Positions 1 to 432 are shown, counted from the first letter of the stretch. The stretch is 64,000 nucleotides of DNA from Escherichia coli (GCF_003334785.1 NZ_QOWV01000010.1); one strand, 5' to 3'. A program made the numbers and translations. Notes: a model not told the origin generated them from the sequence alone.

Positions 1-230
1 GTGCGGGAGAGGATGAACGGCAGCGGGCCGGGCAGGGCGATGTCGGTTTCACCGGGAAGGACCTTTGCACCGAGCAGGGGATTGACCGGATGGCCGGACG
101 TCACTCCGCCGGGGCACACCGAACAGGCCACGCCGGTGGGGGCACCAATACGTACCCCGGCTGAACCCTGAACAATGCTACCGCCATACTGCGTCATGTC
201 ACCCTGACGCGCCGCCGGTTTTCCGCTCAT
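1..230 (-). CDS. rhsB: Rhs-family polymorphic toxin, N-terminal PAAR-like region only (5' partial; continues beyond window start)
   Basis: Minus-strand ATG at 228-230 translates to MSGKPAARQGDMTQYGGSIVQGSAGVRIGAPTGVACSVCPGG..., the conserved Rhs N-terminus as I recall it; lies just beyond nikR as on the K-12 map; not in the ORF track because no stop falls inside the window. Confidence 0.75.
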   Translation of the reverse strand, partial: MSGKPAARQGDMTQYGGSIVQGSAGVRIGAPTGVACSVCPGGVTSGHPVNPLLGAKVLPGETDIALPGPLPFILSR

Positions 231-432
231 CGTAAAATCCTTTTCTATTATTTTAATGACAGTATCTTCATACGAAAAAGCGAAGAAAAACTTGTGGTCA
301 CAATGAATTGAAGATTTTTAGGAATATATTTAGAACGTTACAAAAGAGAAGGTTCGGATAGGGTATTTAGAGAGGAATCAGGTGTGCTAGTGGCCCTTTG
401 TTGATCGTTCACCAAAGGACCCAATAATAGAC

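Follow-up and report, generated by a model that had tools for sequence, protein, structure and literature searches.

The 5' end of rhsB, a probable orphan Rhs toxin gene beside nikR, at the edge of a 64-kb Escherichia coli window

The left edge of a 64-kb stretch of Escherichia coli DNA is the start of rhsB, a long-known Rhs toxin gene beside the nickel regulator gene nikR. We are highly confident that positions 1-230 on the minus strand of this stretch (hereafter the window, meaning all 64,000 nucleotides analysed) are the 5' end of rhsB, that the gene, as read in genomes identical to the window over its first 25 kb, encodes a 1411-aa polymorphic toxin, and that the leader in front of it is part of the Rhs element; most likely it is an orphan effector in this lineage. 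Because rhsB has long been known and located beside nikR, the finding is correct but ordinary. It carries little weight as a discovery: the gene was known, the nikR/yhhJ locus was catalogued, and rhsB is annotated in thousands of genomes. Its main value is the confirmation that a 76-codon edge fragment had been read correctly. Descriptions of rhsB go back to the 1980s-90s. For rhs elements in general the earliest account is from 1984, and the nikR/yhhJ site is E. coli rhs locus 9 of Jackson et al. 2009 (PMC2935791 for both).

The left edge of the window encodes the RhsB N-terminus

Eight features make up the left edge, counted from the window's first letter:

1-230, minus strand: rhsB codons 1-76 (RHS element core protein), continuing off the left edge; from translation, the NF041261 match and identity to annotated rhsB.
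3-95, minus strand: RhsB residues 46-76, where DUF6531 begins, the domain that plugs the N-terminal end of the Rhs shell, with the motif PVNPLLGAKVLP; from a Pfam DUF6531 match over residues 46-123, E 2.2e-17.
144-227, minus strand: a single PAAR repeat, RhsB residues 2-29 (GKPAARQGDMTQYGGSIVQGSAGVRIG); from alignment to four PAAR/spike-tip structures.
238-242, minus strand: AAGGA, the rhsB ribosome-binding site, with 7 nt between it and the ATG; read from the sequence.
231-425, minus strand: AT-rich rhsB leader, part of the Rhs element; from 35% G+C over 231-432 and from breakpoints at 426/435 in genomes that lack rhsB.
318-332, minus strand: a box, TAAATATATTCCTAA, about 100 nt upstream of the rhsB ATG; from alignments with K-12 rhsA, rhsC and partly rhsD.
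392-421, minus strand: a stem-loop of 9 + 3 base pairs that begins 11 nt past the nikR stop codon; from fold energy.
433-834, minus strand: nikR, which closes the nik operon and is the conserved gene to the right of the Rhs element; from the ORF and annotation.

Translation, profile matching and DNA identity all identify the gene as rhsB. The trinucleotide CAT at 228-230 is a minus-strand ATG that opens a frame of 76 sense codons, which leaves the window leftward without meeting a stop. The encoded protein opens MSGKPAARQGDMTQYGGSIVQGSAGVRIGAPTGVACSVCPGG, and the full 76-residue peptide reads MSGKPAARQGDMTQYGGSIVQGSAGVRIGAPTGVACSVCPGGVTSGHPVNPLLGAKVLPGETDIALPGPLPFILSR. This peptide matches positions 1-76 of the NCBIfam RHS_core profile NF041261 (E 2.1e-45), and the underlying DNA has 100% identity with the beginning of rhsB as annotated in K-12 and in many further E. 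coli genomes; the frame is therefore not a chance ORF. An earlier note, made from the window's sequence alone, had placed the start of an Rhs polymorphic toxin gene at this edge, and that reading is borne out, with rhsB as the gene. We rejected two further ORFs, one antisense at 1-171 on the plus strand and one at 387-527 on the minus strand, as spurious, their frames differing from those of rhsB and nikR, with which they overlap. Base composition varies by segment, with 66.1% G+C in the rhsB part (1-230), 35.1% in the leader (231-432), 57.2% in nikR (433-834) and 52.7% in the whole window.

Judged by its profile and structure matches, the RhsB N-terminus is one PAAR repeat and not a complete PAAR domain. 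A PAAR domain consists of three such repeats, which form a cone. The PAAR tetrapeptide of RhsB is P5-A6-A7-R8. With RhsB 1-47 as the query, only four PDB chains matched, namely 9rce_c (E 9e-4), 4jiv_D (E 0.011), 4jiw_D (E 0.27) and 8gra_J (E 0.84), and in each of these spike-tip proteins residues 2-29 of RhsB align to the last repeat (residues ~67-98). The NCBIfam PAAR profile NF033420 scored 16.3 bits against a cut-off of 124, with the match confined to profile positions 68-94 of 94, and the Pfam PAAR profile (PF05488) found no match at E up to 10 in RhsB residues 1-1184. On these three grounds we count a single repeat. The N-terminus had been described earlier as "PAAR-like", which holds for one repeat at residues 2-29 and does not extend to a whole domain, so that the "PAAR" label for the RhsB family rests on that repeat. 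A prePAAR-type effector, in which an AARxxDxxxH motif is followed by transmembrane helices and then a PAAR domain, was considered and rejected: the RhsB N-terminus reads AARQGDMTQY, and Pfam finds no PAAR domain further on (residues 1-1184).

The mobile Rhs element includes the leader and its hairpin

Comparison across the species sets the boundary of the element just past nikR. The nikR side of a 900-bp query (window 1-900) matched in all 5426 complete E. coli genomes, and at least 80% of the query was covered in 2120 of them (39%). In an evenly spaced sample of the remaining ~60%, genomes without rhsB at this site lose homology at 426 or 435, and these breakpoints fall just past the nikR stop codon (433-435). 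Since homology stops there, positions 231-425, hairpin included, belong to the Rhs element; the AT-rich leader and its hairpin are thus part of a mobile element and not of nikR. Elsewhere the gap between nikR and yhhJ is filled by a hicAB toxin-antitoxin pair (strain 98191), a GntR/PTS/aldolase island (Nissle 1917), or both (O157:H7).

The leader is strongly conserved where rhsB is present, and probably holds the rhsB promoter within its 202 bp. Column identity in the leader is 99% among five rhsB-bearing strains, whose 900-bp matches are 96-100% identical. A sigma-70 scan of 1-900 called no promoter on the rhsB strand inside the leader. Two promoter-like matches, at 401-428 on the plus strand (inside the hairpin) and at 202-175 on the minus strand (inside the ORF), were taken as chance, two having been found with 0.5 expected. 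A sensitive-mode Rfam search of 1-1200 returned no family, so neither the leader nor the hairpin matches a known riboswitch, sRNA or leader there.

One short box is shared with other rhs genes. Homology among K-12 rhsA, rhsB and rhsC starts at the ATG, save for this one upstream element, whose form common to the three upstream regions is TAAATAT(A/T)TTCCTAA; a related sequence, ATATAAATACATT, lies upstream of K-12 rhsD. The box at 318-332 is the only match in the 64-kb window, with 0 expected from 100 shuffles, and it was present in every rhsA, rhsB and rhsC locus that we fetched. The box is a candidate promoter -10 or regulatory element.

An AT-rich leader with a hairpin at about 392-420 had been noted earlier, together with the proposal that the hairpin was probably the nikR terminator. 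The composition stands and the hairpin is real, spanning 392-421; the terminator role fares less well. In favour of an intrinsic terminator of nikR, the element is a strong stem-loop 11 nt past the stop codon, its nikR-sense fold (-16.0 kcal/mol, z -3.78; none of 200 shuffles was as stable) is tighter than that of the opposite strand (-12 kcal/mol), and unrelated strong hairpins lie 10-35 nt past nikR in other inserts as well (-15.5 kcal/mol in Nissle, -16.2 kcal/mol in 98191). However, a U-tract after the stem is absent on both strands, the nikR strand reading ACTAGCACACCTGATTCCTC and the other strand CAATAATAGACTCAATCTTC, and a consensus terminator scan of 1-900 did not call it. It also lies outside the conserved nikR unit, given where homology stops in ~60% of genomes, and no Rfam family supports it. 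The hairpin is invariant across the five aligned rhsB-bearing strains, which makes a covariation test impossible, and we found nothing relevant in the literature on a nikR terminator, the nikR-rhsB intergenic region or 3'-end mapping.

We therefore hold the intrinsic-terminator reading as possible, with the evidence tilting somewhat against it. For the species as a whole, the native terminator of nikR is not this hairpin. Because other inserts also put a strong hairpin shortly past nikR, it is plausible, if only tentatively so, that the one at 392-421 helps to end the nikR message or to keep it stable; from its position the hairpin could end or stabilise that transcript and shield rhsB from read-through.

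The nearest genomes carry rhsB intact, with a predicted toxin tip and immunity gene

The window comes from a close relative of K-12 and not from K-12 itself. Aligned with MG1655 it shows 99.97-99.98% identity and 16 SNPs over 63 kb, and the 777-bp IS1 found inside yrhA of K-12 is missing from it. Over positions 1-900 it agrees at 100% with K-12 and with many other E. coli chromosomes, in which this segment is annotated as nikE, nikR and "rhs element protein RhsB". For window 1-25000, at least 11 RefSeq genomes give the maximal score and are identical to it. We take K-12-like E. coli that bear rhsB in the nikR-yhhJ gap to belong to phylogroup A.

These genomes supply the rest of the gene. The window itself holds 76 of the 1411 rhsB codons, and we took the remainder from other genomes' sequence, reading the left flank in NCTC9038, FJ_Ec_21 and YZ_2_2, each matching window 1-25000 with 100% identity. 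The frame extends in every one of them to an uninterrupted gene of 4236 nt that encodes 1411 aa and the identical protein, WP_000015301.1. Given these three intact flanks, the N-terminal match in the nearest genomes belongs to a complete gene and not to a fragment. Beyond rhsB the order in each is yhhH, which overlaps the end of rhsB by 29 nt, then a yibA-like HEAT/lyase pseudogene, the ISEc1 H-repeat transposase gene yhhI, and yhhJ.

Profile searches on the full protein recover the Rhs architecture. The identical-flank protein scores 2645.8 bits against RHS_core (NCBIfam cut-off 2000) and matches YD_repeat_2x (NCBIfam, E 9e-41); run as two pieces against Pfam, it gives at least 12 RHS_repeat matches. 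Pfam RHS (PF03527) falls at residues 1143-1179 and the Rhs-associated core TIGR03696 at 1170-1247 (E 1.4e-23), with DPxGL motifs at 1221 and 1243. In Rhs toxins a PxxxxDPxGL motif closes this core and marks where the variable tip begins. The C-terminal tip is DUF4329 (Tox-JAB-2; Pfam, E 3.4e-39), with an H-T-H triad (YHTHG), and YhhH matches Imm-NTF2-2 (E 3.4e-26). Zhang et al. equate Tox-JAB-2 with DUF4329, give it a signature that includes H[ST]H and predict Imm-NTF2-2 as the partner immunity family (PMC3482391); the YHTHG triad of RhsB agrees with the H[ST]H part of that signature. Composition profiles give 58-70% G+C for the rhsB core and 29-40% for the tip and downstream genes, and a G+C-rich core with an AT-rich tip is typical of Rhs elements (PMC2935791).

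The leftward continuation as an Rhs core, which the earlier note had made the check on its reading, is thus found in the three identical-flank genomes, from YD repeats through the tip to the Imm-NTF2-2 gene. The matches indicate the order of parts in RhsB as an N-terminal peptide (~1-47) with one PAAR repeat, the DUF6531 plug, the YD shell, the Rhs core and the DUF4329 tip, followed by yhhH. RhsB and YhhH are predicted to be a toxin and immunity pair. Our literature search found no experimental work on RhsB-CT toxicity, YhhH protection, or rhsB expression or secretion.

A second T6SS-type locus lies in the window, and no secretion apparatus

A further orphan T6SS-type toxin locus sits about 35 kb from rhsB:

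35113-36782, minus strand: yhhZ-yrhA, the second orphan T6SS-type toxin locus; from ORFs and profile matches.
35604-36782, minus strand: yhhZ, Hcp fused to HNH; from TIGR03344 Hcp1 (E 3.8e-34), Pfam Hcp (E 2.5e-11) and a weak HNH match (E 0.013).
35113-35607, minus strand: yrhA, intact in the window and IS1-interrupted in K-12; from the YrhA family match (E 1.7e-35).

YhhZ has been described as an Hcp1-family HNH toxin (PMC5714182). The earlier note had reported an Hcp-HNH locus at about this distance, and its further claim of two T6SS-type toxin loci with no secretion apparatus in view also agrees with what we find: in the K-12 equivalent of the window, annotation shows no T6SS gene except yhhZ, annotated as tssD. 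No vgrG linked to the rhsB locus was seen in the annotated neighbourhoods, and PADLOC found no defence-system match for YhhZ, YrhA or YhhH. The lineage carries at least two orphan T6SS-type toxin/immunity loci, rhsB-yhhH and yhhZ-yrhA.

K-12 has lost the secretion machinery, and NCTC9038 keeps only remnants of it at the single site that we inspected. T6SS clusters in K-12 laboratory strains are reported to be absent or present only as remnants (bioRxiv 10.1101/2025.02.08.637259). Next to aspV, NCTC9038 has truncated tssH, TagO and VasL pseudogenes and one intact hcp gene. Rhs sequences occur at this aspV site too, as an additional full-length core gene and as a truncated pseudogene.

As no working T6SS is evident in the lineage, rhsB is most likely an orphan effector there that cannot be fired. 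The gene and yhhH may be kept as a recombination substrate and for kin protection.

A different account would have RhsB serve a T6SS-independent role in T6SS-less K-12-like strains, through another export route or an intracellular function. It would explain why the three identical-flank genomes keep an intact rhsB with the same protein, why the gene is present in ~39% of complete E. coli genomes with a leader so well conserved, and why K-12 laboratory strains without T6SS clusters keep several intact rhs genes. Yet every characterised close homologue of RhsB is a T6SS effector, rhsB is accompanied neither by a signal peptide nor by a gene for another secretion route, and retention can be explained by recent T6SS loss, of which NCTC9038 keeps remnants, combined with selection on the immunity gene. 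We consider such a role quite unlikely.

A broader version of the idea would apply to one-repeat Rhs proteins of the RhsA-D type as a group: being intact and well conserved in T6SS-less lineages, they might be mounted on the spike in an unusual way or act independently of the T6SS. We regard it as improbable. If it were true, three N-termini might form one cone, or an additional adaptor might take part. Expression could then be set by the box at 318-332 together with read-through from the nickel- and anaerobiosis-regulated nik operon, which would cross a hairpin that is not a canonical terminator.

Other versions of the locus in E. coli

Two further readings question whether the rhsB start in the window continues as K-12-type rhsB. 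The first is that a full-length Rhs gene lies at the nikR site with a toxin/immunity pair other than that of K-12 rhsB, through C-terminal displacement. Strains 5283 and CFSAN061768 provide the model: they carry the same leader, and the N-terminus differs at 1 of 76 residues (checked in 5283), but the tip diverges past DPxGL and the next gene encodes a different 189-aa protein, followed by an orphan NTF2-fold immunity gene. Yet both the leader and codon 10 of these two strains (GGC, where the window has GGT) depart from the window, with a 900-bp match of ~96-97%, and every genome read among those identical over 25 kb has the DUF4329 tip and yhhH. Displacement in the window's own strain is accordingly very unlikely.

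The second, that the start seen here is a fragment or a gene disrupted by an IS, a deletion or rhs recombination and encodes no full toxin, is scarcely credible: the window does stop after 76 rhsB codons, some genomes are disrupted near this point (APEC-O117H42 has an IS1 inside the matched 900-bp span, and in genome H49 the match covers only 179-900 of the query), and rhs genes are classic substrates of unequal recombination (PMC2935791), but the junction is kept in the 2120 genomes covered over at least 80% of the query, and the gene is intact with the same RhsB in 3 of 3 genomes identical to window 1-25000.

A proposed mechanism for RhsB

Gene identity, domain order, toxin/immunity pairing and element boundaries come from the sequence, while the steps of the mechanism are modelled on characterised Rhs effectors (PMC4436062; PMC10684867). 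By analogy with Tse5 and with Dickeya and Enterobacter RhsA/B, the N-terminal peptide of RhsB would dock the protein on the VgrG spike, and the YD shell would enclose the toxin tip. An aspartyl-protease autocleavage, as in homologous Rhs proteins, would free the tip. A T6SS, where one operates, would inject the tip into neighbouring bacteria, and YhhH would shield the producer and its kin. T6SS dependence has been described for Rhs toxins (PMC4436062).

Comparison with known systems

RhsB is homologous to proven T6SS effectors (Tse5, RhsA, Tse15 and Salmonella Rhs). The best solved homologues of the full protein are Tse5 (8cp6, E 3.9e-127) and P. protegens RhsA (7q97, E 2.9e-85), with Tse15 and Salmonella T6SS Rhs proteins as further solved relatives; all are T6SS Rhs effectors or related cages.

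The closest known system is the K-12 rhsB-yhhH-yhhI element between nikR and yhhJ, which has the same start codon, leader and neighbours as the window. RhsB of the identical-flank genomes differs from K-12 RhsB (b3482) at 2 of 1411 residues.

P. aeruginosa Tse5 (PA2684) has the overall build of RhsB: a very short N-terminal segment, a plug, a YD shell and a C-terminal autoproteolytic core. Tse5 1-47 is a 5-kDa "PAAR-like" fragment, severed at K47|P48 and proposed to act in docking to VgrG (PMC10684867). P48 of RhsB (PVNPLLGAKVLP) aligns exactly with P48, the first residue of the Tse5 shell fragment (PVNPMLGSKLLP, 8cp6_B), and by this analogy RhsB might be cleaved before P48 as well. With RhsB 1-47 as the query, no Tse5 chain matched at E up to 10, so that homology to the Tse5 N-terminal fragment was not detected; only the architecture and the residue-48 junction can be compared. 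The two proteins differ in the tip, a pore-former in Tse5 and DUF4329 in RhsB, and in setting: Tse5 goes with a linked vgrG1c and a functional H1-T6SS, while no vgrG accompanies rhsB.

The complete PAAR proteins VCA0105 (V. cholerae, 4jiv) and c1882 (E. coli, 4jiw) resemble RhsB in their third repeat, which aligns with RhsB 2-29 and shares both the PAAR tetrapeptide and the pattern GDxxxxGG...G..V.IG. Their domains run to ~93 residues, whereas RhsB has one repeat and then passes directly into the Rhs plug.

RhsA and RhsB of Dickeya dadantii and Enterobacter cloacae, like rhsB-yhhH, combine an Rhs core and a variable C-terminal toxin with a small immunity gene. Delivery of these effectors depends on VgrG (PMC3150448; PMC4436062). 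Their loci are vgrG- or T6SS-linked in T6SS-positive hosts, whereas rhsB is unlinked and sits in a lineage with no working T6SS evident.

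Results

E. coli genomes differ in what occupies the gap between nikR and yhhJ. The rhsB element fills it in about 39% of complete genomes; others carry a hicAB toxin-antitoxin pair there, a GntR/PTS/aldolase sugar island, or the two together. Even the stop codon of nikR varies between TGA and TAA, and each variant brings its own strong hairpin shortly past nikR.

Junction and other occupants of the nikR-yhhJ gap, the latter in loci L007-L009 from other E. coli genomes
Window 426-435: nikR-side junction
L007 7800-8000: other occupant
L008 7256-8006: other occupant
L009 1510-8000: other occupant

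The nikR-side hairpin of the window also contains a sigma-70-like site, which is oriented antisense toward nikR. This match is probably due to chance, because the scan gave two such sites in the 900 bp covered, against 0.5 expected.

Window 401-428 (+): TTGATC, 16-nt spacer, AATAAT

Strains 5283 and CFSAN061768 have the same leader and Rhs N-terminus beside nikR. Their C-terminal tip diverges past the DPxGL motif, and the gene 3' of rhs encodes a different protein of 189 aa. The DNA further downstream includes an orphan immunity gene of the NTF2 fold, along with a DUF6258 gene. These two strains exemplify displacement of the C-terminal tip at the rhs locus next to nikR.

L014 961-6230 and L015 949-6230: rhs locus of 5283 and CFSAN061768

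Upstream of the coding sequence, rhs genes share a short box, TAAATAT(A/T)TTCCTAA. It sits about 100 nt 5' of the start codons of rhsA, rhsB and rhsC, with a partial copy upstream of rhsD, and the surrounding DNA is otherwise unrelated between these upstream regions. The 64-kb window holds one copy, against zero expected by chance. The box is a candidate for a promoter or other regulatory element common to the rhs genes.

Copies of the box in the window and in rhs loci of other genomes
Window 318-332 (-)
L010 2570-2584
L011 1969-1983
L018 about 1650-1665

NCTC9038, whose genome is identical to window positions 1-25000, carries a decayed T6SS island beside the tRNA-Asp gene aspV. Its tssH, TagO and VasL genes are all pseudogenes, and a single hcp is intact. 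An additional Rhs core gene of full length is also present, together with a truncated Rhs pseudogene and H-repeat elements of the ISAs1/ISEc1 type. The truncated tssH directly adjoins this Rhs pseudogene, apparently at the deletion junction.

L012 36277-50000 and L013 1-7531: T6SS island of NCTC9038

Secondary BLAST matches within the window revealed a repeat present three times, once inverted; its copies measure about 110-117 bp and are some 84% alike. By position they are intergenic, in the livJ/panM, livF/ugpB and glgP-glpD gaps, and they may be ERIC/IRU-type elements.

Window 20918-21038, 26747-26863 and 54958-55064: repeat copies

The second toxin locus of the window comprises two genes, with yrhA overlapping the end of yhhZ by 4 nt.

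Window 35604-36782 (-): yhhZ, Hcp-HNH gene
Window 35113-35607 (-): yrhA, intact, 164 aa

In K-12 MG1655, a 777-bp IS1 insertion at this point breaks yrhA, whereas the gene is unbroken here; the window strain has therefore retained an apparently complete pair of Hcp-toxin and immunity genes.
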